Source: an uncultured Candidatus Saccharibacteria bacterium
GTDB lineage: Bacteria > Patescibacteriota > Minisyncoccia > Minisyncoccales > CAZUDS01
DNA length: 26,571 bases
Direction: 5' to 3'
Assembly: GCA_964619425.1 (NCBI GenBank)
Contig: CAZUDS010000001.1
Span: 1 to 26,571 of the forward strand
The notes under the pieces were generated by a model. That model did no database searches. It worked only from the letters and a program-made list of their open reading frames with translations, and was not told the origin of the DNA. The stretch's first letter is position 1; each line of letters starts with the position of its first letter. The translations under genes were made by a program, and so were the position numbers. Shown here piece after piece: positions 3,346-26,571 of the stretch.

Positions 3346-4290
3346 TTATGGTAACCTTTCTATTAAACTAAAAAATTCAAATTTCTTTAAAATTTGAGTG
3401 GCTTTTTCTTTTTTATAATTTTCCCATTGGCATTCTTTTAAGTTAAAATCCAAAGGCACATTTTTGTGTATCTCGGCTAAATCCCTGCTGAAAAAGGCCT
3501 GCTCTTTGTATTCTTCGAGCTTCACTCGAAGACGCTGATTTACGCTGATTAGCACTGCCTTCGGCAGTGGCCGCTGATTTGATGCTGAATATAAGCTTTC
3601 TAAGCTACCGAATTCTTTAATTAATTTAATGGCGGTCTTCTCCCCTATCCCGGGCACACCAGGAATATTATCTGAAGGGTCGCCCTTTAAGGCCTTGAAG
3701 TCAACTAATTGCTCGGGGTTTAAGCCATATCTTTTTTTAACTGCCTCTTCATCATACAAAACAGTATCTTTTAGTCCTTTTTTAAAAGTATAGACCTTGG
3801 TGTTTTCATCAATTAATTGAAGGGTATCTAAGTCGCCGCTAAGAATAATATTTTCCACTAGAGAATAAGCTTGTCCCGCGCCAGAGATTTCGTTTTGGCG
3901 CAAGGCAGATCTTTTAACCGACTCTTTACTCAAGGTGCCAATAAGGTCATCGGCTTCGTATCCCTCTTTTTCAAAAACAGCAACATTAAATGCCTTTAAT
4001 ATCTCTTTTACCTTTGGAATTTGTTGGACTAATCCCTCCGGGGTTTTGGGTCTTTTTGCCTTATATTCTTTAAATTTTTGATGGCGAAAAGTAGGCGCTG
4101 GCAAATCAAAGCAAGCAGCTATAAAATCTGGCTTTAGTTCTCTGATGGCCTTAAAAAAAACCAATAAAAATCCATAAGCGGCATTGACCAATTCCCCTTT
4201 CTTGGTAGTCAAGGGAGGCAGAGCATGATAGGCCCGATGAATTAAAGCATTGCTGTCAATAATAATAAGCCGTTTTTTTTCTTTAGTCAT
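3346..4290 (-). CDS. 5'-3' exonuclease / flap endonuclease (PolA N-terminal domain, without the polymerase domain)
   Basis: IIDSNALIHRAYHA, CFD, GYEADDLIGTL, SGDLD, KGDPSDNIPGVPGIGEKTA (H3TH); ends at 314 aa. Confidence 0.92.
   Translation of the reverse strand: MTKEKKRLIIIDSNALIHRAYHALPPLTTKKGELVNAAYGFLLVFFKAIRELKPDFIAACFDLPAPTFRHQKFKEYKAKRPKTPEGLVQQIPKVKEILKAFNVAVFEKEGYEADDLIGTLSKESVKRSALRQNEISGAGQAYSLVENIILSGDLDTLQLIDENTKVYTFKKGLKDTVLYDEEAVKKRYGLNPEQLVDFKALKGDPSDNIPGVPGIGEKTAIKLIKEFGSLESLYSASNQRPLPKAVLISVNQRLRVKLEEYKEQAFFSRDLAEIHKNVPLDFNLKECQWENYKKEKATQILKKFEFFSLIERLP
3532..3590. repeat. CGCTGAT decamer repeat arm with internal hairpin, inserted in frame in the exonuclease gene
   Basis: acgctgattt acgctgatta - cactgcc ttc ggcagtg hairpin - ccgctgattt gatgctgaat; encodes SASNQRPLPKAVLISVNQR. 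Confidence 0.8.
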
Positions 4291-4378
4291 GTTTTCATTT
4301 TAACACAAAATAAAAAGAATTTCTCAAAAAAACTATTAATATAAATCCTATTTCTCCTATTGTTAAAGTAACTCTTCC

Positions 4379-4408
4379 CAGGGATCGGGTCCCTGGACCC
4401 GATCCCTG
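4379..4408. repeat. REP-like 30-bp palindrome downstream of the transposase
   Basis: cagggatcgggtcc-ct-ggacccgatccctg, perfect 14-bp arms. Confidence 0.95.
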
Positions 4409-4413
4409 TTTTT

Positions 4414-5124
4414 TTATTCTAGGGCGAGATCGGGAAACTTTTTGATTTTTCCTTTATATTGTATCCAATAATCCACAAATTTCTTCCAATCTTTTGGTTC
4501 CATTATCTTTAAAAGAAAATCTCTATCCGTGACTGAGGGAAAATTCTTTTTGCCAATATAGTCAGGATAACTTGACCATTTATAGTTTTCTAGAAATTCA
4601 ATAACTTTCTCTGGCTTTGTTATTTCTTCTTCTTTCCAGTTTGGCTCTACAAGGGCCACAGGATTAGTATGAATATATACAAAGACCGTTTTTAGCTGTT
4701 CATCATTTTTAATGTGAATAGCGCCAAATCTGCTTTGAAAAACATGTCCCATGCGATTATATTTTTTATTTAAATAACCTCCGTAGCCAGCACCCAGTTT
4801 CTGCATAAATTTTGAAATTCCCCCTTCTTTTATTTGTTTTAATAATAAATGAATATGATTCGGCATAAAACAAAAGGTCAAAATTTCCACCAACTTATCC
4901 CTTTTATCAACAACAGGAATCAAACCCTTGCTGGATTTTTTGAAACGGGCACGGGCCTCTCTCCGTTCTCTTATAGTAATTAGTCTTGTGGTATTGAACT
5001 CGTAGATAGAAAAAATCCCTCTGTAGTAATCATTAATGTCTTTGAAAACCAAATTCTCATCAATCCCCCTCAAGACAACATGATAAATTTCATCATTAAC
5101 AAATTGTTGGCGTCTATAAGGCAT
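4414..5124 (-). mobile_element. REP-associated tyrosine (HUH/Y1) transposase, RAYT / IS200-like
   Basis: IYHVVLRG, HUH motif FMPNHIHLLL, GHVFQSRF, catalytic Tyr region YIHTNP, YKWSSY; ATG start at 5124 preferred over TTG at 5139; flanked by palindromes. Confidence 0.92.
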
Positions 5125-5144
5125 AACTAGAATCCCCAAGCCCC

Positions 5145-5174
5145 CAGGGATCGGGTCCAGGGACCCGATCCCTG
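5145..5174. repeat. REP-like 30-bp palindrome upstream of the transposase
   Basis: cagggatcgggtcc-ag-ggacccgatccctg, arms identical to 4379-4408. Confidence 0.95.
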
Positions 5175-5178
5175 TTTT

Positions 5179-5724
5179 TTATTTTAGCATGGAGTTGTGA
5201 TTCTTTGAAATTGTAATTTTTCTTGTTTTTTTGTCAAGAAAATCGAAGTGTAGGCAGATTGTATTTTTTGGTAGTATCTTACCAAGCCGCTCTGCCCACT
5301 CAATAGCCACAATATTTTGAGGGTCAGAGATTATTTTTTTGAAACCCAAAACCAAAATCTCTTTTGGTTTCTCAACTCGATAACAGTCGATGTGATAGAG
5401 AGTAGAGGGTAGAGAGTAGAGAGTAGAGGATAGAGGGTGGCGCGTAGTTTTTTTTCTACCTTCTACTTTCCGCTCTCCACTTTCTATTTGAAATTTTCGC
5501 ATGATAATAAATGTCGGACTCAAAATTTTCTCTTTTACTCCCAGGCCCTTAGCAAAACCCTGCAAAAAAGTTGTTTTCCCTCCTCCTAAATCACCGAGCA
5601 AAGCCAAAACAACTGCGTTTTTTCGCAATTCTTTTCTTAAGATCTCTTTTGCTAAATTTTGTCCTAATTTTCTTGTCTCTCCGGGTAAAAAAGTGATAAA
5701 TTGGCTTCGTCTTGTTTTTGACAT
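5179..5724 (-). CDS. tsaE: tRNA threonylcarbamoyladenosine biosynthesis ATPase TsaE, with a repeat-derived insertion
   Basis: LLGDLGGGKTTF (Walker A), SPTF, YHIDCYR, IEWAE. Confidence 0.95.
   Translation of the reverse strand: MSKTRRSQFITFLPGETRKLGQNLAKEILRKELRKNAVVLALLGDLGGGKTTFLQGFAKGLGVKEKILSPTFIIMRKFQIESGERKVEGRKKTTRHPLSSTLYSLPSTLYHIDCYRVEKPKEILVLGFKKIISDPQNIVAIEWAERLGKILPKNTICLHFDFLDKKTRKITISKNHNSMLK
5396..5488. repeat. Inverted heptamer arrays inside tsaE (TAGAGRR x6 / YTCYRYY x5)
   Basis: tagagag tagaggg tagagag tagagag tagagga tagaggg (5396-5437) and ttctacc ttctact ttccgct ctccact ttctatt (5454-5488). Confidence 0.88.
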
Positions 5725-6888: not shown

Positions 6889-6898
6889 AAATAATATA

Positions 6899-6937
6899 AT
6901 GCGAATGATGCGAATGGTATTCGAATGCTGCGAATAG
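6899..6937. repeat. GCGAAT repeat arm downstream of the GxxExxY gene
   Basis: atgcgaatg atgcgaatg gtattcgaatg ctgcgaatag; abuts the stop codon at 6938-6940. Confidence 0.88.
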
Positions 6938-7339
6938 CTATTTTATATCTCGGTTTAGAACTCTTTTAGGGTAAAGATATTTTTGACGAAAATTAACAAT
7001 TAAACCTAATTTTTTATTACAAGAGACAAGGTACCGACGTAACTGAAAATAATCATCTTTTGCTATAAAGGGTTTTGCCTTTATCTCTAAAACAATTCTA
7101 TCGTCAATAATAAAATCGGGAATATTTCTTTCTTCTTTTTCTCCCTTAAAAGAAGGAGGTAATGCTTTTTCACGTACATATCCTATCTTATTTTCTTTTA
7201 ATAATTCCTCTATCGCGTCAGCATATTGCCTCTCGTTTCTATATCTCCCTAATTTATTATGAACATAAAAACAGAGACCACAAGTTTTATAAGATAATTC
7301 GGGATGGACTATATTGTTTTTTATTCGCAGCATTCGCAT
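6938..7339 (-). CDS. GxxExxY family protein (PD-(D/E)XK nuclease-like)
   Basis: LGRYRNERQY, PDFIIDDRIVLEIKA, QLRRYL, LGLIVNF. Confidence 0.92.
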   Translation of the reverse strand: MRMLRIKNNIVHPELSYKTCGLCFYVHNKLGRYRNERQYADAIEELLKENKIGYVREKALPPSFKGEKEERNIPDFIIDDRIVLEIKAKPFIAKDDYFQLRRYLVSCNKKLGLIVNFRQKYLYPKRVLNRDIK

Positions 7340-7344
7340 TTCAT
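7322..7344. repeat. ATTCGC repeat arm upstream of, and overlapping the start of, the GxxExxY gene
   Basis: tattcgcagcattcg (7322-7336) is the exact reverse complement of cgaatgctgcgaata (6922-6936). Confidence 0.85.
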
Positions 7345-7812: not shown

Positions 7813-9477
7813 CTAATATTGATTACTTGGTCTCGGCATTCTATCATTGACTGTCCAAGAAGGACCGCAGAAACATACTTCTGTTTCTTCATCACATTGG
7901 GGAGTATCGCCGCCGATCACCATAGGACAAATTAAACCAATGCAATCTCTGTCTTTCTGGCAAGCCCTGCCTCTTTCTCTCGCCGGCATCTCTGCTTCGG
8001 GCATCTCCTCTTCAACTTTCTCTCGAGCTTCTTCAATTTCTTTTAGTCGCTCTTGATATTGCTTGCGGGCTTCTTCAAGCTCTTTTTCTATTTCCTCCCT
8101 TGCCTCTATTGGCGCCTGTTCAAGTTTCCTCTGGACTTCTCTTAAGGCCTCTTCAGCACGTCCGGCCTCCTCTAATTTCTCTTCTAATTCTTCTAATCTC
8201 TCTATTGCTTCCTCTTTTTCTTTTTCCAAATTTTTAATCGCTTCTTCTATGTCGTCAAGAATCTCTTCGGCCTGCTCGGCAAATCGTCGCGCTTCCTGGT
8301 AGTTGCCGGCGGCAAGCGCTGATCTTGCTTGCATAAGAAGAGCGTCAAACTCGTCGAAAGTTCCTGCGGGAATTACGATGCCTTCTTCAGCGGCCTCATC
8401 AATAATTTCCTGTTTTGCTTCTTCGGCTTCTTGTATCGCTTTGCGCGCCGCCAAACTAACTTCCATCTGCTCCTCAATCTCATCGGATAAATCATCAAAC
8501 TCTTCTTCCGCTTTATCAAGTTTGTCTTCAAGAAAACTAGCTAATCGTTCGGACTCGGTTTCCAGGGTAATGTCAATATCGTAATCTATAGAGGTCATGC
8601 CCTGCTGAGGACTGTTGATAGAAACACTGATCGTTACCGAGGCCTCAGGAGTCAATTCAATGCCATCAATAGTTACTGGCGGATACACTTTTTCAAATGT
8701 AATATCCAAAGAATCGTCGTCAAGCGTTACGTCACCACTTTCCCAGGCCTGATCAATGCCTTGGGCAAGGATCCGGTTCCGTAAAGCCGCTAAATCAACA
8801 ATAGTGTCCGCTTCCGCCTCATGGGTGGAGCTGTAAGTATCGTCATCCACATCCACATTGTAAGAAACAACAGTAAACCCTTCCAGTGGTCTGCCAAGTT
8901 TGGCATCAATTTCATCGGCGAGACCTCTTAAGGCGTTCTCCATTGCCTGAATGAAATTCGGATCGTCCATTCTTTGCAATAACGCTTCTCTTTCCACCAC
9001 GGCAAGCGCCCTAATCTTATCCCCTGAGTTTTCTATCGCGTCATTAAGAAATCCTTCCCAGACAGACATCTTGTTGGCAAGGGTTGCCGCTAGGGGGGCA
9101 ATCTCTGCCCTTGCCTCAAGTTCACCTAAGATGATAGCCGCCCTATCCGTGTGCGCCCCAATTCTGACAAAGGCAATCTCAATAGCTCCGGGGCTTAGAA
9201 CCTCCCTGCCAAGCATCACCTTTATTTCTGAAACCCGTTCTCCAATCAATGAAACCTGGAGCCGGGCCTTGCCTTCGTCAGTAAAAGTGAAAAACATTTG
9301 AATCCCTTCACCCCATTGGTCAAGGAAATAAAAACGGCTTTCCGGGGTAAATCCGGCGCCCGGCAATTCTGGCAAAACCTCAGGAATCAAAGGCACCGGC
9401 TCTCTTGCCTCTTGAGCCAAGACCCCTCCTCCAAAACCAATTAAAACCAACAAAACTATTAATAATGAGATTTTCAT
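7813..9477 (-). CDS. Secreted DUF5667-domain protein with an acidic coiled coil and a Cys-rich C-terminal tip
   Basis: Signal peptide MKISLLIVLLVLIGFGGGVLA; GFTPESRFYFLDQWGEGIQMFFTF typical of DUF5667; E/K/A-rich heptads; CQKDRDC...C...C...CFC. Confidence 0.8.
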   Translation of the reverse strand: MKISLLIVLLVLIGFGGGVLAQEAREPVPLIPEVLPELPGAGFTPESRFYFLDQWGEGIQMFFTFTDEGKARLQVSLIGERVSEIKVMLGREVLSPGAIEIAFVRIGAHTDRAAIILGELEARAEIAPLAATLANKMSVWEGFLNDAIENSGDKIRALAVVEREALLQRMDDPNFIQAMENALRGLADEIDAKLGRPLEGFTVVSYNVDVDDDTYSSTHEAEADTIVDLAALRNRILAQGIDQAWESGDVTLDDDSLDITFEKVYPPVTIDGIELTPEASVTISVSINSPQQGMTSIDYDIDITLETESERLASFLEDKLDKAEEEFDDLSDEIEEQMEVSLAARKAIQEAEEAKQEIIDEAAEEGIVIPAGTFDEFDALLMQARSALAAGNYQEARRFAEQAEEILDDIEEAIKNLEKEKEEAIERLEELEEKLEEAGRAEEALREVQRKLEQAPIEAREEIEKELEEARKQYQERLKEIEEAREKVEEEMPEAEMPARERGRACQKDRDCIGLICPMVIGGDTPQCDEETEVCFCGPSWTVNDRMPRPSNQY

Positions 9478-9557
9478 AGCTTATTTGTAGGAATTAGACG
9501 CGTTGTTTACAGTTCTTTAGAAGGAAAATTCTAAGTTCTAAACGAATCCCAACAATA

Positions 9558-9708
9558 AAATCCCAAATCCCAAATTCCAAATCACAAATAAATTCCAATG
9601 ACCGAAATCCCAATGACCGAAACAGAATTGTTTATAAAGAAGGTTTTGGTCATTTGGTCATTGGAATTTGGATATTGTTTGTTATTTGGTGCTTGGTGCT
9701 TGGAATTT
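9558..9708. repeat. 'Empty' CCAAAT/ATTTGG heptamer inverted-arm element (same family as the four-helix-bundle flanks)
   Basis: Left arm aaatccc aaatccc aaattcc aaatcac...caatgaccgaaac (9558-9623), 19-bp spacer, right arm gttttggtcatttggtcattg...ggtgcttggaattt (9643-9708). Confidence 0.92.
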
Positions 9709-9892
9709 AAAGAAATAAAAAGTGTAAACAACGCTCGGAATTCTTACAACTTATTATATTATTGTTTTTATAAAACTATCTCGACCTTTGTTTGTGACGC
9801 TGATGCGCCTCTTATTATTTTATCACAAAAACAAAATTCTCTAAAGCCAAATCAACGGGGTTTACCCAAAAATTGGAGGGCTTGTCTTTTAA

Positions 9893-10084
9893 TTATTTCT
9901 GCTCTTCAATAAATTTCTCAAAAGAGCGGTCATAACTCTTTTCGGTCTCTAAGGAAAAACAACAGGCAGGCAACTCACTTTCTGCCAAATGGTGTTTTAA
10001 GCATTCACAACAAATTCCTTTTCGCGGGCAGCCAGGATAAGTGCAGGGACAACTTATTAGATTTTTTTCCTTTTGGCACTCCAT
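9893..10084 (-). CDS. DUF6485-like Cys-rich small protein (probable Zn-binding)
   Basis: CPCTYPGCPRKGICCECLKHH...LPACCF...YDRSFEKF. Confidence 0.8.
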   Translation of the reverse strand: MECQKEKNLISCPCTYPGCPRKGICCECLKHHLAESELPACCFSLETEKSYDRSFEKFIEEQK

Positions 10085-10085
10085 A

Positions 10086-11399
10086 TTATTTGGACTCCAG
10101 AGATTTTAACTTAAACTTTCTTTGTAAGGCCTCTAAGAATTCAATCAACTCAGGATCAGAGATAAATTCCGCCACCTGCTCAGCAAAAACTCTGATAGGG
10201 AATCTTTTATCTTCTTGCCAATACTGACAGGCCTGCAAAAAAGTGGCTAAACAATTAACCTGGTCAACAAAGTTGCCTTCGGCTGATTCTTTCTCGTTAA
10301 ATTCTCTCCAGAGACATAGAATCTCTTGTTTTAAGTTCTGAGGCAATCTTCCCACCAGAACCCGAAGAGCTTTTGTCTCTTTTTTATAAGTACCCTGAAA
10401 TCTTTTTACTTTTTCTTGTTTTAATAATCTTGGCCGCGCTTGCCAAAATTTTTTCCAGCGCCAGCGGGAACCTAAAACATCATAACATACATTGGGGCTG
10501 AGGGGGTGGCCGCTAAAACGTCGAGTAAAAACATCGTGAGGAGTATAATCGCCAGCATAAACAGCGCAAATTTCATGAATTAAAGCCATTTTCAAGGCCT
10601 TTCTTAAATCAATTTTCTTCTTTTGGCCAAAAACCCAAACCATCAAGGCAACCGTAAAGCTATGGTCGGCTACGGTTTCCGGCTCTTTGATTCTTCTAAC
10701 AACCCAGCCCCGGCGAGGCAATCTCTTTAACTTCCCTACTTCAATAAGAAAATCTAAAATGGGGTCAGTCCTCTTTTTAGCATAAAACTTTTTTTCAATT
10801 TCTACTAAAAAATTGGATAAAGCGGGGTGATCAATTAAGTCCTCAACTTCTTCCCACCAAGCGGTTGCCAGCGAATCTGGTTTAGAACCAAAATACTCTA
10901 AGGCCTGGAGTAGGGTTTCTGCCTTATCTCCCTGCCTTGTAAACCTTCCTTCTGAAGGAGTGAGCCCTTCATAATCTAACCAGGCACCCTCTATTTCTTT
11001 CTGAAGAGAAAGGGGGAGAAATTTCACTAATTTTTCTAAGGCCTTTTTCTCTCGCTGAAATTTTTCTTCTGCCCTCTTCTCCTTTTTCTCTTTTGTCAAT
11101 CTTACCCATCTTTTCAAAACTTCTTTTCTCTTCAAAGGATCTTTAGGCAACAAACCCCAATAAGGCGTTATGTCTCCAATATAGGCCTCGCTGAGATCGT
11201 GAACCAAACTTGTCTTAATTATCCTTTCAATGTTAAATCGAGGACTTGATTTCTCAGACAGAAACCAATTCAGTAAAGCAACTCGAAAACTATGCTGGGC
11301 AATGGTCTCGGGATTTTTAACGCCTCGCTCAAGCCAGCCAGTCCTCTTTATCTTTTTTAATTTTTCTGCTTCCAAAAGAAAACTTAAAACTCCTGTCAT
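10086..11399 (-). CDS. Tandem HD-domain hydrolase (YfbR/HDDC2 5'-deoxynucleotidase-like, two domains)
   Basis: Two repeats: RTGW...ETIAQHSF...VHDLSEAYIGDITP and RRGW...ETVADHSF...IHEICAVYAGDYTP; ATG start at 11399 preferred. Confidence 0.88.
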   Translation of the reverse strand: MTGVLSFLLEAEKLKKIKRTGWLERGVKNPETIAQHSFRVALLNWFLSEKSSPRFNIERIIKTSLVHDLSEAYIGDITPYWGLLPKDPLKRKEVLKRWVRLTKEKKEKRAEEKFQREKKALEKLVKFLPLSLQKEIEGAWLDYEGLTPSEGRFTRQGDKAETLLQALEYFGSKPDSLATAWWEEVEDLIDHPALSNFLVEIEKKFYAKKRTDPILDFLIEVGKLKRLPRRGWVVRRIKEPETVADHSFTVALMVWVFGQKKKIDLRKALKMALIHEICAVYAGDYTPHDVFTRRFSGHPLSPNVCYDVLGSRWRWKKFWQARPRLLKQEKVKRFQGTYKKETKALRVLVGRLPQNLKQEILCLWREFNEKESAEGNFVDQVNCLATFLQACQYWQEDKRFPIRVFAEQVAEFISDPELIEFLEALQRKFKLKSLESK

Positions 11400-12169: not shown

Positions 12170-12231
12170 TGAGTTAGTGTTGGGCTTAGGCCTAACACTC
12201 AAACATAGACGCTCACTTCGTTCGCGCCTAT

Positions 12232-12344
12232 ACGCGGATTTATGCTGATTTAGAATTATCCGCTGATTTACGCTGATAAGTAAGGGATTCCTTTTTAATC
12301 AGCGTCTATCAGCGTTAAAAAGTTAATCAGCGTTATATCAGCGT
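12232..12344. repeat. 'Empty' CGCTGAT/ATCAGCG decamer inverted-arm element (4+4 units, 17-bp spacer)
   Basis: acgcggattt atgctgattt..ccgctgattt acgctgataa / aatcagcgt ctatcagcgt..aatcagcgt tatatcagcgt. Confidence 0.9.
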
Positions 12345-14290: not shown

Positions 14291-14305
14291 AATTCGCAAC
14301 CCATA

Positions 14306-14366
14306 ATGTTCAGATCCCGGCTTCGAACATTGGTTTTAGCAGTGTTCAGATCCCGGCTTCGAACAT
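14306..14366. repeat. Pair of ATGTTCAGATCCCGGCTTCGAACAT REP-like repeats
   Basis: Copies at 14306-14330 and 14342-14366 (24 of 25 bp identical), between convergent genes. Confidence 0.92.
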
Positions 14367-14709: not shown

Positions 14710-15840
14710 TTAGCTTGGCTTAATGGGCATTACAATATAGAAATAATTTTCATCGCCGAATGGTTTTAGGAGCGCCGGGCCTTCTTCTCCGTTAAGTTGA
14801 AAAACAACCTCTGAGGTCTTTATTTTTGAAAGACCGTCTGCTAAGAAACGGTAATTAAAGGACGCTTTTACCGACTCACCTTTAATTTTTCCTGAAAGAG
14901 TTGACTGGTTTTCACCTAACTCAGAACTTTGACTAAAGACCTCAATTAGTCCTTTTTTGGGTATAACTGTTAACTGGGTTTCATTCGCCTTTCCGGAGAA
15001 CAAGCTGGCTGTTTTTATATGGTCAAGAAATTCTCTTTTACTTAAAGTAATCTCTGTTTTGAATTGTTGGGGAATTATTTCTCGGTAATTAGGGTAAGAA
15101 CCCTCAATTAAACGGGAAGTGATTTGAAGTTGGGGATGAGCGGTTTCTTCAGGCATCTCTGTTTCAAACATAATTTGGTTGGGAGAGAAATATATTCTTA
15201 ACTTCCCCTGTTTTTCATCAAGAATATTAATTAATTCTCTGGCTGTTTTAGAGGGTAAAATGATGGCTTGTTCTTTTTCCATTTTTATTTCCTGCGGGAA
15301 AATTATTTTCCTTTCCGCTAATCTAAAAGAGTCAGAGGCCGCCATCAAAATTCTTTTTTCATCAAAAGAAAGATAGATTCCTGATAATTCAGGCCTAATT
15401 TGGGTAATGGCGGCAACATCAGCCACTTGAGATAAACCCTGAATAAAGGTGGAATTATCTACTTCAATAAAGTCCTCTTTGAGTTCCGGAATAATTGGAT
15501 AATCCTCTGGACTTTGGCTTAAAATTTTGCTCTGAAAACTCTTCCCTTGAATTAATAAAACGTTTGCCCTGCTTTCCAACATAATTTTTTCATCAAAAAG
15601 CGAGTCAATTAAACCAGACAAGGTTCGGCCGGGAACAGCAATTTGGCCTTGTTTTTCAATTTTAGCTAAAACCCAATAATGAATGCCTATTTCCAAATCA
15701 GTGGAACTGATTTTAAGAAAGTTTTTTTCGGTTTGCAATAAGATATTATTCAAAATAGGTAAACTAATAGATTTTTGAGTCAATCGGGAAGTAATATTTA
15801 TTCCTTGTTTTAGGTTGTTTTTTAAAATAAGTAATTTCAT
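14710..15840 (-). CDS. dnaN: DNA polymerase III beta sliding clamp
   Basis: LPILNNILL, STDLEIGI, RPELSGIY, ASDSFRLA, RLIEGSYPNY, FNYRFL, IVMPIK. Confidence 0.97.
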   Translation of the reverse strand: MKLLILKNNLKQGINITSRLTQKSISLPILNNILLQTEKNFLKISSTDLEIGIHYWVLAKIEKQGQIAVPGRTLSGLIDSLFDEKIMLESRANVLLIQGKSFQSKILSQSPEDYPIIPELKEDFIEVDNSTFIQGLSQVADVAAITQIRPELSGIYLSFDEKRILMAASDSFRLAERKIIFPQEIKMEKEQAIILPSKTARELINILDEKQGKLRIYFSPNQIMFETEMPEETAHPQLQITSRLIEGSYPNYREIIPQQFKTEITLSKREFLDHIKTASLFSGKANETQLTVIPKKGLIEVFSQSSELGENQSTLSGKIKGESVKASFNYRFLADGLSKIKTSEVVFQLNGEEGPALLKPFGDENYFYIVMPIKPS

Positions 15841-16267
15841 ATTTTTAGACCATTGAATAACTCCCGTTTTTCTACGAAATTATCTATATTTATCTATTTC
15901 TATTCGTCTAATAGGGGCTGATTTACGCTGATAATAACACTGATTTACGCGGAAAAAATTGTTCAACAATCTTAATTATAAATTAAATTAATTATTATAG
16001 TTATTATTAAGGAAAAGATTTTTTGGGAATTATCTTGTTTATTAAAGAATTAGCAGCGTTTCGGTATCTTAAAACTAGTTAAAAAAATAAAGAATTACTT
16101 TGGGAATAAAATTTTATTAAAATTCTTCTCTTTTTATTCAGTATTTTTCCCCAAAAATTCCAGGGCCTTAATATGACAATCCGGAGAAAGTTTTATTTCG
16201 GATTTCCCGCCAAAACACTCCTGAAATACTCAAAAAATACTGTAATTTCTATTTCGTAATTCAAAAA
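15841..16267. other. Candidate oriC segment (dnaA-dnaN intergenic, very AT-rich)
   Basis: Near-pure A/T tract ~15972-16010; DnaA-box-like tgggaatta (16024), tgggaataa (16101), ttttcccca (16145); position between dnaA and dnaN. Confidence 0.5.
15916..15956. repeat. Solitary CGCTGAT decamer arm (4 units)
   Basis: ggctgattt acgctgataa ta acactgattt acgcggaaaa. Confidence 0.8.
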
Positions 16268-17611
16268 TTAATTAAATATTCTTTGTCTTATTAAGCTAAT
16301 TTCTTCGGTTAGGTTTTCGTTTTTTCTCATCTCTCTTTCAATTTTCTTTTTAGCGTAAATAATAGTGGTATGATCTTTATCTTTGAATTTTCTGGCAATT
16401 AAAGGATAAGAACACTTTAGATCCTCTCTTAGTAGATACATAGCAATTTGCCTAGGCCTAACAATTTCTTGCTTTCTTGAGGGGCTTAACACTTCCCTTT
16501 CTTTAAGATCGTAAAATTCGGCCACCACCTGGAGAACTTTCTTAAAATTAGCCACTTTTTTAGGACCGATAACTGTTTTTTTAAGAATGTCTTGGGTCTC
16601 TGTTAATGTTAGCGGGCCGTTTTTCATTTTTTGGCAGACGGCTAATTGATTAACCGCTCCTTCTAACTCTCTAATATTATTTTTAATATTAACCGCAATG
16701 AACTCTAAAATTTCGTCAGAAAGAGAAATGTTTTTTTCTTTAATTTTGATTCCTAAAATAGCCATTCTGGTTTCCAAGTCAGGCGTGCCGATATTGGTCG
16801 TCATACCCCCTCCAAACCGCGAAATCAACCTTTCTTCTAAAACAGAGATGGCTCTCGGCGGCTTATCAGAGGAAAGAACAATCTGTTTATTTCTTTCATA
16901 TAAAACATTAAAGACATGAAAAAATTCTTCCTGGGTTTTTTCTTTGCCAGCCAAGAATTGGACATCGTCAACAATTAGAAAATCTATTTCCCTGTATTTT
17001 ATCTTAAAACTCTCAAGGCCCTGATTTTTAATGGCCGCTACCATATCCGAAGTAAACTTTTCTGATGTTATGTATTTTATTTTTTTGTTGGGGAATTTCT
17101 TTCTATTTTGATTGCCAATTGCTTGCAAGAGATGGGTTTTGCCTAATCCGACACCGCCGTAAATAAATAAAGGGTTATAGGTTAGACCCTGTTTGTCAGA
17201 GACGCACCAGGCAGCAGCATGGGCTAATTCGTTAAAAGAGCCCACGACAAAATTTTCAAACTGATACCTTGGGTTAAGCCCGGACTGCTTTTCAATCGCA
17301 AACTCTCGGAGGTCAAGCTGGGGAGTTTTTTTTAGCGGCAAAAAAGCCCTTTCCTTAATTGTTGGGCCGGCGCTGATAATATATTTTATTTCTTTAATTT
17401 CTGGCGACAATTTATGAAGAGCCCCCAACAAGATTTTATGATATTTATTTTTTAGCCATTCTTTGGAAAAATTATTTGGGACTGAAACAATCATCTGACC
17501 ATCTTTAATATCTGAAATTTTGGTGTTCTTAAACCAAGTAGAAAAGTTGGCTTGGCTAATTTGGAATTGAATTTGGGCTAAAATAGATTGCCACAGTTCT
17601 TTTCCGTCCAT
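16268..17611 (-). CDS. dnaA: Chromosomal replication initiator DnaA
   Basis: WQSILAQI...FSTWF, FENFVVG, YNPLFIYGGVGLGKTHLLQAIG, LIVDDVQF, RELEGA, RPRQIAMYL, DHTT. Confidence 0.98.
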   Translation of the reverse strand: MDGKELWQSILAQIQFQISQANFSTWFKNTKISDIKDGQMIVSVPNNFSKEWLKNKYHKILLGALHKLSPEIKEIKYIISAGPTIKERAFLPLKKTPQLDLREFAIEKQSGLNPRYQFENFVVGSFNELAHAAAWCVSDKQGLTYNPLFIYGGVGLGKTHLLQAIGNQNRKKFPNKKIKYITSEKFTSDMVAAIKNQGLESFKIKYREIDFLIVDDVQFLAGKEKTQEEFFHVFNVLYERNKQIVLSSDKPPRAISVLEERLISRFGGGMTTNIGTPDLETRMAILGIKIKEKNISLSDEILEFIAVNIKNNIRELEGAVNQLAVCQKMKNGPLTLTETQDILKKTVIGPKKVANFKKVLQVVAEFYDLKEREVLSPSRKQEIVRPRQIAMYLLREDLKCSYPLIARKFKDKDHTTIIYAKKKIEREMRKNENLTEEISLIRQRIFN

Positions 17612-17619
17612 ATTAAAAG

Positions 17620-17689
17620 GGGTTTAGGTTGCAGCTTTTAGGCGCTTCCTGATAACCTAAAACCTAATAACCTAAAACCTAATAACCTA
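17620..17689. repeat. AACCTA/TAGGTT heptamer-octamer inverted arrays in the dnaA leader
   Basis: (ataacctaaaaccta)x2 + ataaccta at 17652-17689; opposing tttaggtt and ttttagg at 17623-17642. Confidence 0.75.
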
Positions 17690-17701
17690 CAAGCTGTCTG
17701 T

Positions 17702-17731
17702 ATTATAACTGAAACCAAGAGATGAAGTCAA
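17702..17731 (-). promoter_or_regulatory. Putative dnaA promoter
   Basis: TTGACT (17731-17726), 18-bp spacer, TATAAT (17707-17702). Confidence 0.7.
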
Positions 17732-17772
17732 CCCTTATAAATAGGGGCGGAGAAAGATAAAAAGCCATAATT

Positions 17773-17803
17773 CGTTAATAAGTTGGGGACAAATTGTGGA
17801 TTT
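17773..17803. promoter_or_regulatory. Three degenerate DnaA boxes at 11-bp periodicity
   Basis: cgttaataa (17773), tggggacaa (17784), tgtggattt (17795) versus TGTGGATAA; 2-bp spacers; upstream of the dnaA promoter. Confidence 0.5.
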
Positions 17804-17826
17804 TTTCCGAGCCGGATCGCTAAGCC

Positions 17827-17893
17827 ATGTTCGAAGCCGGGATCTGAACATCAATAAAAGCGCGCCTGGATGTTCGGAGCCGGGCTTTGAACG
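17827..17893. repeat. Pair of ATGTTC...GAACAT REP-like repeats, inverted orientation
   Basis: Exact reverse-complement copy at 17827-17851; degenerate copy at 17870-17893. Confidence 0.88.
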
Positions 17894-17922
17894 CAGACAC
17901 CAGCCATCAATTTTCAGTATAT

Positions 17923-17951
17923 TTGACTTAGATTTCATAACATACTAAACT
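17923..17951 (+). promoter_or_regulatory. Putative rpmH operon promoter
   Basis: TTGACT (17923-17928), 17-bp spacer, TAAACT (17946-17951). Confidence 0.6.
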
Positions 17952-18000
17952 AACGTCAGAGAGGGTTTTCTACTGACCATTCTCTGTGCTAACGTTTATT

Positions 18001-18135
18001 ATGTCAATTACCTATCAACCAAAAAAGAAAAAAAGGAAAAAAACCCACGGCTTTATTAAGAGGAAAAAAACGAAAGCCGGAGTTAGGGTTTTAAGCAGGA
18101 GAAGGAGGAAAAAACGAAAGAGGTTAACTGTGTAA
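18001..18135 (+). CDS. rpmH: 50S ribosomal protein L34 (44 aa; missing from the ORF track)
   Basis: Manual translation [44 protein letters not shown]; canonical position before rnpA. Confidence 0.96.
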
Positions 18136-18162
18136 TAAAAATTTTGGAAGAGCCATACAGTT

Positions 18163-18603
18163 ATGCTTCTGAAAAAGAACCGATTAAAAAAGAAAAAGGA
18201 CTTTGAAAGGGTTCTTAAACAGGGCAGTGGTTTCAAAGAAAATTTTTTATTTTTGAAGGTAGCCAAAAACGGCTCAGAGATAAGCAAATTTGGTTTTATA
18301 GTTAGCCGAAAGGTCTCCCAGAGAGCGAACGAAAGAAACAAGCTCAAAAGAAGAATGAGGGAGTTATTGAAAAGCAGGATGTCAAGAATTGAAAAGGGCG
18401 TTGACGTGGTTTTTGTTGCCCAACCCGGCTTACAAGAAAAGAGTTTTGAGGAATTGGAGAAAATCGTAGAAAAGCTACTTCAAAGGTCTGGAATTTTTAT
18501 TATATCGGAAACTGAAAAATCAAGTCCGAAGGACGCAGATTTTTCAGATTTTCCGATTAAGCCCGCTCTACCCCGCCCTCTATGCTCAGAGAATAAAGAT
18601 TAA
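18163..18603 (+). CDS. rnpA: Ribonuclease P protein component, with a C-terminal extension from palindromic DNA
   Basis: NRLKKKKDFERV, KFGFIVSRKV, RANERNKLKRRMRE (RNR-type motif), DVVFVA. Confidence 0.93.
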   Translation: MLLKKNRLKKKKDFERVLKQGSGFKENFLFLKVAKNGSEISKFGFIVSRKVSQRANERNKLKRRMRELLKSRMSRIEKGVDVVFVAQPGLQEKSFEELEKIVEKLLQRSGIFIISETEKSSPKDADFSDFPIKPALPRPLCSENKD

Positions 18604-18714
18604 ACAAAGAGCCTTTAAATTAAACTTAATTTACTCGCATAACCAAAATTCAATACACTTAGAGGGCGGGGTTAGGGCGGAATAGTGCGAAAATTTCTGA
18701 AAGAAATTTTCGCC
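18504..18714. repeat. Cluster of three stem-loops across the rnpA 3' end
   Basis: atcggaaactgaaaaatc..gatttttcagattttccgat (18504-18557); accccgccctcta/tagagggcggggt perfect 13-bp IR (18570-18582/18660-18672); gcgaaaaatttc..gaaattttcgc (18687-18714). Confidence 0.8.
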
Positions 18715-18750
18715 TATGTGCTAACCCCCAGCCCATAATTCATAGCTTTT

Positions 18751-18984
18751 ATGATTAAGACCCTTGTCTTAAATAGTATTAAATTTTACCAAAAAGTTTT
18801 TTCGCCCGACCAAGGAATTTTTAGCTTTTTGTCCAGGAGAGGGGTTTGTCGTTTCTATCCTTCTTGTTCCCAGTACTTCTATTCAGCCGTTAAGAAATAC
18901 GGCATTTTCAGGGGAACTTGGTTAGGAATAAAGAGAATAGTCAAGTGTCATCCATTTAATCCTGGCGGAGTGGACATACCCTAA
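18751..18984 (+). CDS. yidD: Membrane protein insertion efficiency factor YidD
   Basis: [34 protein letters not shown]. Confidence 0.95.
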
Positions 18985-19002
18985 TAATACTTAAAAACAA
19001 CT

Positions 19003-19740
19003 ATGAGTTTTCTTATCCAGGCCTTTAACCTTATATTGTACCAGCCCATTTTGAATGCCCTGATTCTCCTTTATCACTATTTGCCGGGACAGGATTTCGG
19101 TGTGGCGATTATTGTTTTGACTTTGTTAATCAGGGCTTTGCTCTATCCCCTTTCGCGCCAGGCAATTATTTCTCAAAAAGCAATGACCGACCTCCAGCCA
19201 AAAATAAAAGAAATTCAGAAAAAATATAAAAAAGACAGAGAAGGACTGGCAAAAGCAACGATGAATCTTTACAAAGAGGAAAAAATTAATCCTTTTTCCG
19301 GCTGCCTGCCTTTTTTAATTCAAATTCCTATTTTAATTGCTCTTTTTCAGGTTTTCTCGCGAGGGTTTGGGCAAGACCAAATAGGGTTTCTCTATGATTT
19401 TGTCCCCAGTCCGTTAAATGGGTTCGTGCCAAGTTTCCTGGGATTAGTTAATCTTTCCCAGCCCAATTTTATTCTTGCGATTATAGCCGGTTTTCTTCAG
19501 TTTTGGCAGACGAAAATGCTGTCACCTAAAACCAAAAAAACCGGCAATAAAAAGGACGGTCAATCAGTATTCCTTGAACTTTTCCAAAAACAAATGCTTT
19601 ATTTATTTCCTGTTTTTACTTTTATGATTTTATTGGGCTTTCCTTCGGCCCTGGCTCTTTTTTGGGCAGTAACAAGTTTATTTGTTATTGGTCAGCAACA
19701 CTTTTTCTTAAAAACAAAAAAAAATGCAAAACCAATTTGA
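19003..19740 (+). CDS. yidC: YidC/Oxa1 membrane insertase (short form without a large periplasmic domain)
   Basis: DFGVAIIVLTLLIRALLYPL, LQPKIKEIQKKY, INPFSGCLPFLIQIPI, PSALALFWAVTSLF. Confidence 0.96.
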   Translation: MSFLIQAFNLILYQPILNALILLYHYLPGQDFGVAIIVLTLLIRALLYPLSRQAIISQKAMTDLQPKIKEIQKKYKKDREGLAKATMNLYKEEKINPFSGCLPFLIQIPILIALFQVFSRGFGQDQIGFLYDFVPSPLNGFVPSFLGLVNLSQPNFILAIIAGFLQFWQTKMLSPKTKKTGNKKDGQSVFLELFQKQMLYLFPVFTFMILLGFPSALALFWAVTSLFVIGQQHFFLKTKKNAKPI

Positions 19741-20185
19741 TTTGAAAAAAATTAGGGCTGTTTGTCAAGAATTTTTTGAAAAAATGGGTTTTTTAGGGTC
19801 ATTAGAAGTAGGAGAGACCCGAGACAGAACCTTGCCCGTAAGAATAAGGACTGAGGAGCCCCGAATTTTAATTGGTCGAAACGGGCAGACCCTCTCGGAA
19901 ATTCAACATTTATTAAAGGCAGTTCTGCGAAGGAAATTTGGCAGCGATTTTTATCTTGACTTAGATATTAATGGCTACAAGGAGAAAAAAATAGAGTACT
20001 TAAAGGATTTAGCCCAAGTTACAGCTGATGAGGTTTCTTTAAGCAAAAAGCAAAAAACCCTGGCGCCAATGTCCTCTTATGAAAGAAGAATTATTCATCT
20101 TGAATTAGCTGAGCGTCAGGATGTTGTTACCGAAAGCATGGGCCAGGGATTAGAAAGAAGGGTGATAATCAAGCCCGGGTCCTGA
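19724..20185 (+). CDS. jag: Jag/KhpB (EloR-like) KH + R3H RNA-binding protein
   Basis: LIGRNGQTLSEIQHLL (KH), LDINGYK, PMSSYERRIIHLEL (R3H), RRVIIKP. Confidence 0.92.
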   Translation: MQNQFDLKKIRAVCQEFFEKMGFLGSLEVGETRDRTLPVRIRTEEPRILIGRNGQTLSEIQHLLKAVLRRKFGSDFYLDLDINGYKEKKIEYLKDLAQVTADEVSLSKKQKTLAPMSSYERRIIHLELAERQDVVTESMGQGLERRVIIKPGS

Positions 20186-20189
20186 AATA

Positions 20190-20324
20190 ATGTTCAGATC
20201 CCGGCTTCGAACATCCAAGTGGGTACAAATTACAAATGACTTACAAATATACAAATATTTGTATATTTGTATTTATTCGTAATTCGTACACTTTTATTGA
20301 TGTTCAGATCCCGGCTTCGAACAT
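20190..20324. repeat. Composite element: two direct ATGTTC...GAACAT REPs enclosing a TACAAAT/ATTCGTA inverted-arm element
   Basis: Exact 25-mers at 20190-20214 and 20300-20324; perfect 30-bp palindrome tacaaatatacaaat|atttgtatatttgta at 20242-20271; outer arms 20223-20237/20275-20289. Confidence 0.9.
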
Positions 20325-20361: not shown

Positions 20362-21771
20362 TTAAAATACTTCAAGAACCTGGAGAATTAGAAAGGACTT
20401 GGGTCTAGTGGGTTCAGGCTCAAGCGGCCAATAAAGACGGCCATCTGCTGTATCGCCAAAATTAGGCACATCTGTATGAAACCAATAAGTGTCTCCTCGG
20501 TCCCAGTGCTTTTTATTTCCTGGCTCTGTTGGCCAAAGGAAAACAAGATATTTAACTGATTTGTCCGCATCAATTTCCATTGACAAGGGATACCAGCCAT
20601 TACCCTTTGTTGAAGCAACATTTCGTATTCTTTCGCCAGGCGGCTCACCAGGCACTATCCCATGGTAGAGTCCCGGTTCCTCTCCTTTTAGTTCTGCCAT
20701 TACTCTTTGGCAGCCATATCTTGAGATATTATCGCCGCTTATTTCTAAACATGCTCCTTTGCCTGGGTATTCTCTATCAGGATAATGGTGCTCAAAGAAA
20801 GTTATGCCATCCATACCCGCAGTATAGATAGATTCAGCTGGTCTTTTAAAAAATAACATCGAAAGACAGGGGACATTAAGTCCCGGGTCAGGGATTTCAG
20901 GGTTTAGTACAAAATATTCTATCCTATCTTTCTTGTCCCTCTCTATCAACACACTAGGCCCTGTAAATCTACTATCAAGGATTCTGACTCTTCCTCGGAG
21001 TTCAGGATATTCAAAACAGGCAAGACCATAGTAATGTAAGGCCTCATCTTCATATTTATGTTCAAGCGTTACCGGGTCTCTTATATACTCACGTGTTTCT
21101 GGGTCTATTTTCTTTTTCTTTGGGCTGACAAAAACAAAAGAGTGCATCTCGCCCGTCAAATCAATACTTCCTCCGCCAGCAAGAGGAAATTCTTCCACCC
21201 GGCCAACCTGGGGGATATTTCCAGAAGGTATTCTAATTATTCCAGGCACTCTACTTATTCCTTCTCCGCTTTTTCTTTCCTCTATTAAAAATTTATAATG
21301 CAAATGGACGGGAATTAAAGCTATTCCATCTCTAAAAGAAGCTGGCTCCCCGCCGGGCAGTACTGGTTCTATGGGCTTAGGCATATGAATAACAACTAAT
21401 CCAGGGTCAATGGTATGTAAAATTACCCAGGAACCGAGGAGCAGGGCTAAGCCCAAAAAAGCAGCAATAATTTGTTTTTTGGCTTCTGACTTGGCGGTTG
21501 GACTGCCCAAAGAGATAAGAAAACGGATGCCCCCATAAATCAGAGCGCAAAAAGCAATAATTCCGCCAATAATAACAATAAAATAATAAATATAGAGAGC
21601 CAAACCACCCAGTCCCATATCATGAGTAATTCTGAGCGGTATTCTAAAACCAGGCAGATTCAGCTCAGGATATCTAAGCTGAAGCTCGGCCCGGACTGAA
21701 GCAAAGGGAAAACAGGCGAGAAAAAAGAGAAAAACAAGAAAAAGAATTTTGACTAATTTTTGATAGTCCAT
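20362..21771 (-). CDS. VirB2/TrbC-like (T4SS_pilin) protein A with a long beta-rich C-terminal passenger
   Basis: Signal peptide MDYQKLVKILFLVFLFF; pilin hairpin YYFIVIIGGIIAFCALIYGGIRFLISLGSPTAKSEAKKQIIAAFLGLALLLGSWVILHTIDP; ATG start at 21771 preferred over GTG at 21825, which lies in repeats. Confidence 0.85.
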   Translation of the reverse strand: MDYQKLVKILFLVFLFFLACFPFASVRAELQLRYPELNLPGFRIPLRITHDMGLGGLALYIYYFIVIIGGIIAFCALIYGGIRFLISLGSPTAKSEAKKQIIAAFLGLALLLGSWVILHTIDPGLVVIHMPKPIEPVLPGGEPASFRDGIALIPVHLHYKFLIEERKSGEGISRVPGIIRIPSGNIPQVGRVEEFPLAGGGSIDLTGEMHSFVFVSPKKKKIDPETREYIRDPVTLEHKYEDEALHYYGLACFEYPELRGRVRILDSRFTGPSVLIERDKKDRIEYFVLNPEIPDPGLNVPCLSMLFFKRPAESIYTAGMDGITFFEHHYPDREYPGKGACLEISGDNISRYGCQRVMAELKGEEPGLYHGIVPGEPPGERIRNVASTKGNGWYPLSMEIDADKSVKYLVFLWPTEPGNKKHWDRGDTYWFHTDVPNFGDTADGRLYWPLEPEPTRPKSFLILQVLEVF

Positions 21772-21777
21772 TTTTAA

Positions 21778-21849
21778 GTTGTAGGTTGTAGGTTGTAGGT
21801 TGTAGGTTGTAGAACTACCCTCCACCCTCTACCCTCTACCCCCCATTCT
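21778..21849. repeat. GTTGTAG x5 / CTACCCT x4 opposing heptamer arrays
   Basis: Exact gttgtag x5 at 21778-21812; ctaccct ccaccct ctaccct ctacccc at 21815-21842. Confidence 0.9.
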
Positions 21850-22528: not shown

Positions 22529-22623
22529 TTCCGCGCAAATCTGCGTTTTGATCAGCGTTTTATCTGCTTCTATTGGTTTTTACGTGAATTTGCGCTGATA
22601 TAAACGTTGATTATCGTTGATAA
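22529..22623. repeat. ATCAGCG/CGCTGAT decamer arms in tail-to-tail arrangement
   Basis: atctgcgtt, atcagcgtt, atctgctt (22539-22569) then acgtgaattt gcgctgatat aa acgttgatta tcgttgataa (22582-22623). Confidence 0.75.
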
Positions 22624-23571: not shown

Positions 23572-23583
23572 GTTTTTTTGTAT

Positions 23584-23624
23584 GTCGTGGGTTGTAAGAT
23601 GTAGAGCTACCTTCCACCCTCTAC
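23584..23624. repeat. Degenerate homologue of the 21778-21849 heptamer junction
   Basis: gtcgtgg gttgtaa gatgtag agctacct tccaccct ctac. Confidence 0.7.
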
Positions 23625-24308: not shown

Positions 24309-24382
24309 TTTACTTTGAATGACGAAATAGAAATTACGAGGACTATTACAGCTGTTCACGCTCTTAATTCAATACAAGGTTT

Positions 24383-24424
24383 CCGCTGATTTACGCTGAT
24401 ATAGGTGCTGATTATCGCTGATTA
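24383..24424. repeat. Solitary CGCTGAT decamer arm (4 units)
   Basis: ccgctgattt acgctgatat ag gtgctgatta tcgctgatta; 19 bp identical to 12260-12278. Confidence 0.85.
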
Positions 24425-25859: not shown

Positions 25860-25999
25860 AACGTGTCAAACCATTTAACTATTATAACTGCTTTGGTCAG
25901 ATATTTGATAGATTGACGCATTAAGTCATCTAAAATGTAAGTGAAATGGTATTGTTGGGTCATCTAAAAATACTTTGGGTGTCGCATGTTCAACTTTTT

Positions 26000-26558: not shown

Positions 26559-26571
26559 GTTTAAAGTTTCG

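Follow-up and report, generated by a model that had tools for sequence, protein, structure and literature searches.

Bacterial 23S rRNA can contain intervening sequences (IVSs), which bear an open reading frame (ORF) in Leptospira, Coxiella and Xanthomonas and are ORF-less in Salmonella and others. In the Coxiella IVS, tandem heptamer repeats are present in the stem upstream of an ATG with a poor ribosome-binding site, the ORF decays by deletion, and the element is excised by RNase III (PMC4990558). The distribution of IVSs is patchy, suggesting horizontal transfer, and their origin is unresolved (PMC4990558). Here we analysed a stretch of 26,571 nt from an uncultured Candidatus Saccharibacteria bacterium (contig CAZUDS010000001.1 of assembly GCA_964619425.1; called the window in the following). 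It is a chromosome segment of Patescibacteria-like type that surrounds dnaA and dnaN. It contains an ORF-less inverted repeat at positions 9558-9708 and a cassette at 26000-26482, in which similar arms enclose a gene for a four-helix-bundle protein of the family PF05635/TIGR02436 ('23S rRNA intervening-sequence protein', S23p; called IVP below). The original prediction, made from the letters of the window, regarded the first as the exact empty counterpart of the second, with a gene that was precisely lost or not yet gained, and took this as direct evidence that the arms are a unit independent of the gene. We conclude with high confidence that the element at 9558-9708 belongs, as one of the copies without an ORF, to a dispersed family of heptad-armed foldback repeats. 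The identical junctions are, as judged from sequence comparison, the near-invariant inner stem of this family and no footprint of an event between the two copies. On the whole, we find it rather probable that the family is IVS-like, that its arms are a cis site, probably for the encoded IVP, and that its ORF-less copies arise by deletion.

Comparison with described hairpin elements

As in IVSs, the inverted ends of the elements make a long stem with an optional ORF of the same family (PF05635, 'S23p') in the loop, and ORF-less forms exist in both. Unlike IVSs, the window elements are multi-copy and dispersed between protein-coding genes, and their arms are conserved across phyla. Our Rfam search detected rRNA neither in the window nor in 18 related loci, where it gave only one tRNA. 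Since the location in rRNA defines an IVS, the window element is not an IVS.

The family also resembles the system of REPINs and REP-associated tyrosine transposases (RAYTs; REP, repetitive extragenic palindrome), with many short non-coding hairpins and, in a small number of copies, a small gene flanked by related repeats. In both systems the hairpins are intergenic and long-lived at orthologous sites. However, the gene of the window family encodes an Avd-like helical bundle and not an HUH tyrosine transposase, and it lies inside one long hairpin instead of between separate REP hairpins. In addition, the arms are 65-nt A/T-rich heptad arrays without a GTAG/CGTC tag, whereas REPs are GC-rich palindromes of 20-40 bp.

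With MITEs (miniature transposable elements with inverted repeats) and foldback elements such as Correia, RUP, ERIC and BOX, the family shares the small size, the lack of coding capacity, the many copies and the inverted-repeat ends; some of those elements derive from larger coding elements by internal deletion. It differs from them in that the coding relative has no transposase; no target-site duplication was seen at the one pair of copies that defines the ends. Further, the family is old and diverged (median identity 0.70), shows no recent burst, and has heptad arms that are constrained in sequence. Finally, the cargo protein shares fold and superfamily with Avd, which acts in pentameric form, in complex with a reverse transcriptase and a structured RNA. 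Unlike the avd gene, the cargo gene is embedded in a hairpin, and among the scanned ORFs of the window there was neither a reverse transcriptase nor a template/variable repeat pair.

The shared junctions belong to the inner stem of a repeat family

In the ORF-less element the 5' arm closes with ccaATGACCGAAAC and the 3' arm opens with GTTTTGGTCATTTGGTCATTG, with 19 nt between them. Read directly and by script, the plus strand has the 14-mer CCAATGACCGAAAC at 9610-9623 and the 21-mer GTTTTGGTCATTTGGTCATTG at 9643-9663. On the minus strand, the cassette has CCAATGACCGAAAC at 26431-26418, followed by 352 nt (26417-26066) and by GTTTTGGTCATTTGGTCATTG at 26065-26045. The shared junctions around interiors of 19 and 352 nt were reproduced by script, and in this comparison of 9558-9708 with 26000-26482 the junction identity ends exactly at 14 bases on the 5' side and at 21 bases on the 3' side. 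Over their full length, the arms of the two copies are identical at 53 of 66 (5') and 56 of 66 (3') positions, i.e. 80% and 85%.

These matches are not direct evidence of a precise loss or gain that links the two copies. The arms of the family are closed by a conserved, nearly invariant inner stem, CCAATGACC...GGTCATTGG, to which the junctions belong. Searches for the exact 21-mer gave 116 metagenome contigs, and 51 further contigs from GTDB species-representative genomes. Since it is exact in these 167 contigs from many phyla, the match between the window copies needs no recent event; and since the outer arms differ by 15-20%, it is not the scar of a recent event between both copies. The ATG-bearing motif noted earlier is indeed present on the upstream arm, but it belongs to the stem (CCAATGACC holds it and pairs with GGTCATTGG) and serves as a start codon in one sub-lineage only.

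We found that the members of the family are foldback repeats of approximately 150 bp, in which the 5' arm has the form (CCAANNN)n and the 3' arm the form (NNNTTGG)n. These are arrays of 7-nt units, and for the arms in the window the lag-7 autocorrelation is 0.56-0.62. In almost all contigs containing the 21-mer, it closes one arm on the inner side of a hairpin with the same construction as that of the window, and a profile derived from 33 ORF-less copies matches the window element at 102 bits. The region 9485-9749 is predicted to fold as a single hairpin on either strand; for 9480-9760 the free energy (dG) is -88.2 kcal/mol (z -8.7), and for the minus strand it is -77.8 (z -6.4). In the window, CCAATGACCGAAA with up to two mismatches has 7 matches compared to 0.74 expected, and none of 100 shuffles reached 7.

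The features of both copies are listed in Table 1. On one side of the ORF-less element is a small DUF6485 gene, which follows an HD-domain gene, and on the other a DUF5667 gene; all three have minus-strand orientation. The locus was recovered with 99.98% identity, from the same genome, in an independent sample (L174; L followed by a number denotes a related locus). Relatives were inspected for a four-helix gene at this position, but those with HD proteins of 67-74% identity have no hairpin at the site and a different downstream gene order, and are uninformative as to a full or empty state. The 19-nt loop AGAATTGTTTATAAAGAAG is possibly a decayed remnant of the gene; its assignment to the 5' end of the cargo ORF was rejected, because the similarity seen by eye is too weak in A/T-rich sequence. 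An ORF of 104 codons at 9598-9912 (plus strand), which runs from the ATG of the arm through the hairpin, has no family match and was judged spurious. The public record calls a 104-aa 'gene' there across the empty hairpin, showing that the arms mislead gene callers.

Table 1. Positions of the parts of the two family members in the window.
Feature	Position	Strand	Description
5' arm, ORF-less element	9558-9623		A/C-rich 7-nt units (AAATCCC, AAATTCC...); lag-7 autocorrelation 0.59; period 7 and 15 in Tandem Repeats Finder (TRF)
Two CCAATGACCGAAA copies ending the ORF-less 5' arm	9595-9607, 9610-9622
Loop, ORF-less element	9624-9642		19 nt, AGAATTGTTTATAAAGAAG; without clear homology to the cargo gene
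3' arm, ORF-less element	9643-9708		G/T-rich 7-nt units (NNNTTGG); opens with the 21-mer GTTTTGGTCATTTGGTCATTG, invariant in the family
Outer inverted repeat around the ORF-less element	9485-9517 / 9717-9749		33 nt, 79% complementary
3' arm, ORF-bearing cassette	26000-26065	minus
Cargo gene	26066-26428	minus	120-aa PF05635/TIGR02436 protein (IVS protein / Avd-like)
5' arm, ORF-bearing cassette	26418-26482	minus	overlaps the first 11 nt of the ORF
Extra tandem 5' arm copy	26495-26561	minus	61/67 identical to the first copy
End of third 5' arm copy	26566-26571	minus	CGAAAC; contig terminates within the array

Distribution and loops of the family

Most of the genome contigs with the 21-mer belong to Aminicenantes/Acidobacteriota, and the labels of all 51 cover about ten phyla. 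The other labels are Omnitrophota, Patescibacteria, Saccharibacteria, Scalindua, Planctomycetia, Cloacimonadota, Chrysiogenales, Dehalococcoidia, Clostridia, Pseudomonadota and Syntrophaceae. At least five contigs of a single metagenome-assembled genome (MAG), QR_Bin.23, hold the exact 21-mer. In viral contigs, neither the 21-mer nor the IVP subfamily of the window was found.

The spacing between the arms clusters at approximately 18-32 nt, at 60-140 nt (nested palindromes) and at 340-400 nt (IVP), the gene-less members having loops of 5-45 nt or loops with nested small palindromes. A count of full versus empty copies gave an IVP-like region in only 15 of 170 loci. Among 149 distinct elements with the 21-mer, the loop carries an intact gene in about seven and a damaged one in two, while about 140 are ORF-less, so that the ORF-bearing share is approximately 5% (about 1 in 20 of the sampled members). 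In this respect the original prediction was right: the arms are a unit independent of the gene. All IVP genes of these loci with two cleanly readable flanks lie between complementary low-complexity arms, and IVP homologues of 59% and 35% identity are likewise armed, with different arm sequences.

The loops of 60-140 nt hold small perfect palindromes, for example GTAGGGAACGCAGATCTGCGTTCCCTAC (GTAG-tagged, REP-like) or AGGGGTTTGATTAATCAAACCCCT. Such loops, of the type found in Aminicenantes, are present in L007, L015-L017, L027, L030, L034, L039, L042, L097, L109 and others. Loops of the family's hairpins have thus repeatedly served as sites for other palindromic elements. An ORF-less copy is also nested within the full cassette L057.

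Full and empty states

The cassettes with an IVP gene are of two types. In the Aminicenantes type (L021, L057, L080 and L108), the 5' arm is followed by a leader of 17-20 nt, the gene with its own ATG, a 15-nt trailer and the 3' arm. Dozens of ORF-less copies in many contigs have one common 27-nt loop with the consensus sequence GAAGAGAAGAAACTTGAAAGGGCTTTC, which corresponds to the start of this leader joined to the trailer. Full and empty forms of the Aminicenantes type evidently differ by the ORF at a single common junction. Cassettes of the window type (the window, L001, L002, L022 and L037) have no leader; the ATG of the stem is read in frame, and the IVP has an extension of 8-9 residues (MTE...) ahead of the conserved YDLEER start. 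The orientation of the ORF relative to the two arm types is opposite between the Aminicenantes type and the window type. Several apparent ORF remnants in other empty copies were discarded, because they are the inner 5' arm, which is translated as the N-terminal extension in the window type.

One orthologous locus, between genes for a histidine kinase and a response regulator, was found in four states in four related genomes. It contains a full IVP gene in L022, an IVP gene split by a GIY-YIG gene in L112, and a gene with a deletion of about codons 31-88 in L096/L099. In L074 it is empty, the inner arm being directly followed by the 3' arm. This series of full, split, deleted and empty states at one locus shows that loss of the cargo by in-place internal deletion occurs. 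Cargo loss, as originally proposed, is thus real at this orthologous locus, but a precise event linking the two window copies is not supported. It is quite likely that ORF-less copies generally arise by loss, and gain may have taken place at other loci, including that of the window.

The ORF-bearing unit at 26000-26482 is 98.8% identical to positions 1656-2138 of L001. We defined the ends of the unit by this pair, since the identity stops there and both flanks are unrelated. By eye, there are five mismatches in approximately 131 nt of arms and two in the 352 nt of the ORF, and the L001 arm has one extra 7-nt unit, a difference of the slippage type. The consensus flanks of the elements are weakly palindromic and are not direct repeats. 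The ORF-less copies at different loci are, by their divergence, old.

The ORF-bearing cassette and its protein

The cargo ORF of 363 nt (120 codons and the stop) consists of ATGACCGAAAC and the 352-nt interior. Its ATG lies within the 5' arm, its TAA abuts the 3' arm, and it is without a Shine-Dalgarno motif. The minus strand of 25960-26571 is predicted to fold as a long hairpin (z -7.5). Extra tandem arms are common in ORF-bearing cassettes, as seen in the window, in L057 and in L080 (two 5' and three 3' arms), where the arrays at 3816-3987 and 4331-4633 flank the cassette. In the window, the tandem 5' arm array at 26495-26571 has a period of 76 nt and lies upstream of the IVP gene; the contig end inside it is probably an assembly break. 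The next ORF downstream (25455-25859, minus strand, 134 aa, no family match) opens with ATGACCGAAACAG at 25847-25859. In the empty element, the same 13 bases (9612-9624) form the transition from the inner 5' arm into the loop, and the copy at 25847-25859 may be a solo arm remnant that provides a start codon.

The cargo protein matches Pfam PF05635 with 50.7 bits (cut-off 33.8, E 2.4e-13) and TIGR02436 with 69.8 bits (cut-off 24, E 2e-19), and is sequence-related to PDB 2RLD. The AlphaFold2 (AF2) monomer model has four helices with a predicted local distance difference test (pLDDT) value of 91.4, and its first six residues, which are encoded by the arm, are disordered. Foldseek comparison of the model gave template modelling (TM) scores of 0.78-0.86 to 2RLD, 0.8 to 2GSC and 0.65-0.78 to Avd (4DWL, 8UB7), in line with the described resemblance of PF05635 to Avd of diversity-generating retroelements (PMC10053308). 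The family PF05635/TIGR02436 is very large (at least 8,000 scored candidates at E 0.001), and homologues with 70-84% identity to the cargo protein are very numerous and labelled with different phyla. Exact look-ups of the window IVP and of the neighbouring protein gave no match.

Across the cassettes, except for the near-identical L001 copy, the proportion of nonsynonymous differences (pN) is 0.09-0.29 and that of synonymous differences (pS) 0.60-1.00, at or near saturation, which indicates that the IVP is made and is under strong purifying selection. For the IVP gene of L001 (1590-2072), the public call gives 160 aa rather than 120, with 40 additional N-terminal residues read through the 5' arm. 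The ORF-bearing element encodes no mobility enzyme; the only product of the coding relative is the four-helix-bundle protein.

Constraint on the arms and its possible cause

At least seven Aminicenantes lineages, with flanks that are 76-89% identical, share one hairpin at a common intergenic site; in two of them it is inverted relative to the flanks. In this orthologous hairpin the identity is 0.90 and 0.85 for the arms (0.85 outside the 21-mer) and 0.70 for the loop, and in the adjoining gene it is 0.87, 0.90 and 0.72 for codon positions 1, 2 and 3. The arms are evidently constrained like codon positions 1 and 2, and the loop appears to drift like third positions. The 21-mer is intact in all these lineages, which is incompatible with neutral decay despite the bias that results from selecting loci by the 21-mer.

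There is no covariation between the arms, since the complementarity within an element (41.3) is not higher than that of cross pairs (42.9). Further, 5' arms of different elements are more similar to each other (55.2) than to the complement of 3' arms. Due to the absence of covariation, the constraint must act on the sequence of each arm, not merely on pairing. For the outer hairpins, the flank-to-flank duplex energy was -22.5 for self pairs and -20.9 for cross pairs, and in 18 of 82 cases self pairing was clearly the better; nesting in an outer hairpin was therefore discarded as a general rule and holds for a subset only.

We propose that a trans factor recognises the arms as a cis-acting sequence; the most economical candidate for this factor would be an IVP oligomer produced from ORF-bearing copies. 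The arms are conserved across phyla without covariation and the sole gene associated with them is conserved across the same phyla; in the simplest model that accounts for both, the arms would be the binding site of the IVP. Recognition of the arms by the IVP is a tentative suggestion. Solved IVP relatives are pentamers, and a pentameric IVP could engage the repeated 7-nt units. The ORF-less copies would then be non-autonomous partners, comparable to REPINs in relation to RAYTs or to MITEs in relation to transposons. When transcribed, either strand of the element would fold into an imperfect duplex of approximately 60 bp. RNase III could cut this duplex as in rRNA IVSs, by which the flanking cistrons would be separated from the loop, either an IVP mRNA or a short loop. 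By analogy, such processing is a real possibility, somewhat short of probable. If it takes place, it would explain why insertions are tolerated between co-oriented genes, and also the position of the start codon, with no ribosome-binding site, within the stem.

Alternatively, the hairpin could be useful to the host, serving intercistronic RNA processing or insulation or acting as a bidirectional terminator. The IVP, GxxExxY and GIY-YIG genes would then be secondary loop parasites, and the empty state would be ancestral. We consider this unlikely, although it fits the retention of a hairpin at an orthologous intergenic site with arms constrained like codon positions 1 and 2, and the mostly intergenic positions of the elements (tandem 36, convergent 13, divergent 7). 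In line with it, the loops take other insertions, namely the GTAG-type palindromes and the ORF-less copy in L057, and the 27-nt loop composed of leader and trailer fits insertion as well as deletion. Moreover, both strands are A/C-rich and then G/U-rich, so that orientation would be indifferent. However, several results speak against it: besides the lack of covariation, mismatches compatible with G.U pairs were distributed over the strands without clear asymmetry (210 vs 180), and the orientation relative to flanking genes was not significantly biased (23 vs 13). An energy comparison that looked positive for selection on RNA of one strand was biased by the choice of arms, and this idea was dropped in favour of the unbiased count just given. 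The region 9300-10100 contains no terminator-like site (a short G+C-rich stem followed by a T run), and no Rfam family matched in the window. Further, the partly deleted ORFs show that loss does occur, and the cross-phylum conservation of sequence, together with an 80%-identical protein, points to constraint at the level of the element.

It is very unlikely that the gene was spread by homing, i.e. that it was copied by gene conversion into resident ORF-less hairpins via arm homology after a break in the inner stem. The layout of an ORF in a hairpin is shared by the GxxExxY / PD-(D/E)XK gene (window 6898-7340) and the GIY-YIG gene of L112, and both nuclease families include known homing endonucleases, but the IVP does not have a nuclease fold. 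The mismatches between the window and L001, which are denser in the arms than in the ORF, could reflect arms of the recipient. However, slippage-type heptad differences (the extra L001 unit, tandem arms) could explain the surplus, and the identity of this pair extends through both arms to their outermost bases, which is what movement of the complete unit would produce.

We give still slightly less credit to the idea that a precise excision or insertion links the two window copies, with the arms as a gene-capturing unit and the exact junctions as its footprint. The 14 and 21 exact junction bases, the ORF that fills the loop exactly and the ORF-less majority would agree with it. Against it stand the exact 21-mer in 167 other contigs and the identity of only 80% and 85% in the outer arms; in addition, the 19-nt loop does not look like a clean empty site, and losses elsewhere are ragged, with intermediates. 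Chance similarity of low-complexity arms or an assembly artefact, which the end of the contig within a tandem arm array might suggest, is of negligible probability in view of the shuffles, the 99.98% identical L174 locus, the independent L001 cassette and the hundreds of copies in public assemblies.

Several observations weigh against an IVS-like family whose arms are recognised by the IVP. The window sequence was present in no RNA run, and one lake metatranscriptome gave only arm fragments from other copies. All loci were recruited via an intact 21-mer, which biases the estimates of conservation upward, and the taxonomic labels of MAGs may include mis-binned contigs. No target-site duplication is visible in the window and L001, the sole pair that defines the ends. 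The ORF-less copies give no sign of recent spread: in pairwise comparison their identity has a median of 0.70, and among 22 ORF-less pairs with at least 90% identity a single one has unrelated flanks. A MITE-like dependence on the IVP is therefore not demonstrated. According to the model and the fold search, the IVP has no recognisable catalytic fold and thus cannot alone explain movement. Finally, the empty state at the window locus may mean 'not yet gained' rather than loss.

The family is important for several reasons. We know of no function of PF05635/TIGR02436 outside diversity-generating retroelements. The elements described here show that the unit composed of a long stem and its ORF is independent of rRNA, that its arms are a sequence family conserved across phyla, and that ORF-less hairpins are the common end state. 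They provide a defined nucleic-acid partner of 150 nt that can be tested against the IVP protein, and the orthologous series of full, partial and empty states can be used for dating gain and loss. The arms could also explain why genomes of Patescibacteria and Aminicenantes have many assembly breaks and spurious calls of small ORFs. More broadly, though we regard this as rather unlikely, PF05635 could be the dedicated trans partner of an undescribed class of heptad-armed foldback elements that colonise transcribed DNA and preferentially hairpin loops. The rRNA IVSs would be a special case of this class, and the GxxExxY and GIY-YIG genes would behave likewise. If true, the origin of IVSs, which has been open for more than 30 years, and the role of a large protein family would become directly testable. 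A full-text search, which did not cover all journals, yielded no account of dispersed heptad hairpins with IVP genes.

Other hairpin- and repeat-associated genes

The GxxExxY / PD-(D/E)XK gene of the window (TIGR04256, PF13366; 6938-7339) is located in its own hairpin at 6898-7340 on the minus strand, which consists of ATGCGAA-type repeat units. The ATG lies in the 5' arm AATGCGAATGCTGCGAATA, and the stop codon TAG abuts the 3' arm CTATTCGCAGCATTCGAATACCATTCGCATCATTCGCATT. This is the layout of the IVP cassette, but gene and arms are different, and an ORF-less copy of this hairpin was not found in the window. In L112, the GIY-YIG gene is inserted in the codons for the conserved GANYIEANE motif of the IVP and has its own hairpin, CCCTGTTAAATA...TATTTAACAGGG. 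Gene-less hairpins of the GIY-YIG type are present in L126 and L152, and GIY-YIG may be a third gene family with full and empty hairpin forms.

A gene for an IS200-like Y1 transposase (PF01797) is located at 4414-5139, within 4377-5180, on the minus strand. Its best NCBIfam match is the REP-associated tyrosine transposase, below the cut-off. On both sides it is flanked by a perfect palindrome of 30 nt, CAGGGATCGGGTCC(C/A)(T/G)GGACCCGATCCCTG, followed by T runs. This arrangement is REPtron-like, and the palindromes are unrelated to the arms of the IVP family.

Heptads also occur in other genes of the window. A heptad hairpin, (GTTGTAG)5 followed by CTACCCT-type units, is present at 21772-21849 and 23578-23625, at the 5' ends of paralogous pilin-like genes (PF18895), which lie in a tandem duplication of approximately 1.8 kb (21702-21775 / 23502-23575; 23230-23424 / 25117-25311). 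The array (TAGAGAG/TAGAGGG)n at 5396-5438 lies within the TsaE ORF (5179-5724, minus strand), which has its Pfam match split in two; the array looks like an in-frame low-complexity insertion.

The replication-origin cluster of the window (dnaN, dnaA, rnpA, yidC and a jag-like KH/R3H gene) was located at 14710-20185. A REP-like repeat of 25-34 nt with complementary ends, ATGTTCAGATCCCGGCTTCGAACAT, is present in five intergenic copies in both orientations (14298-14366, 17827-17860, 20182-20214 and 20292-20324). Arrays of 10-nt units of the CGCTGATTTA type were found at 3531-3550, 12231-12344, 15914-15953, 22584-22620 and 24382-24421; the two arrays at 12231-12344 oppose each other, forming a hairpin immediately upstream of the PBP1A gene.

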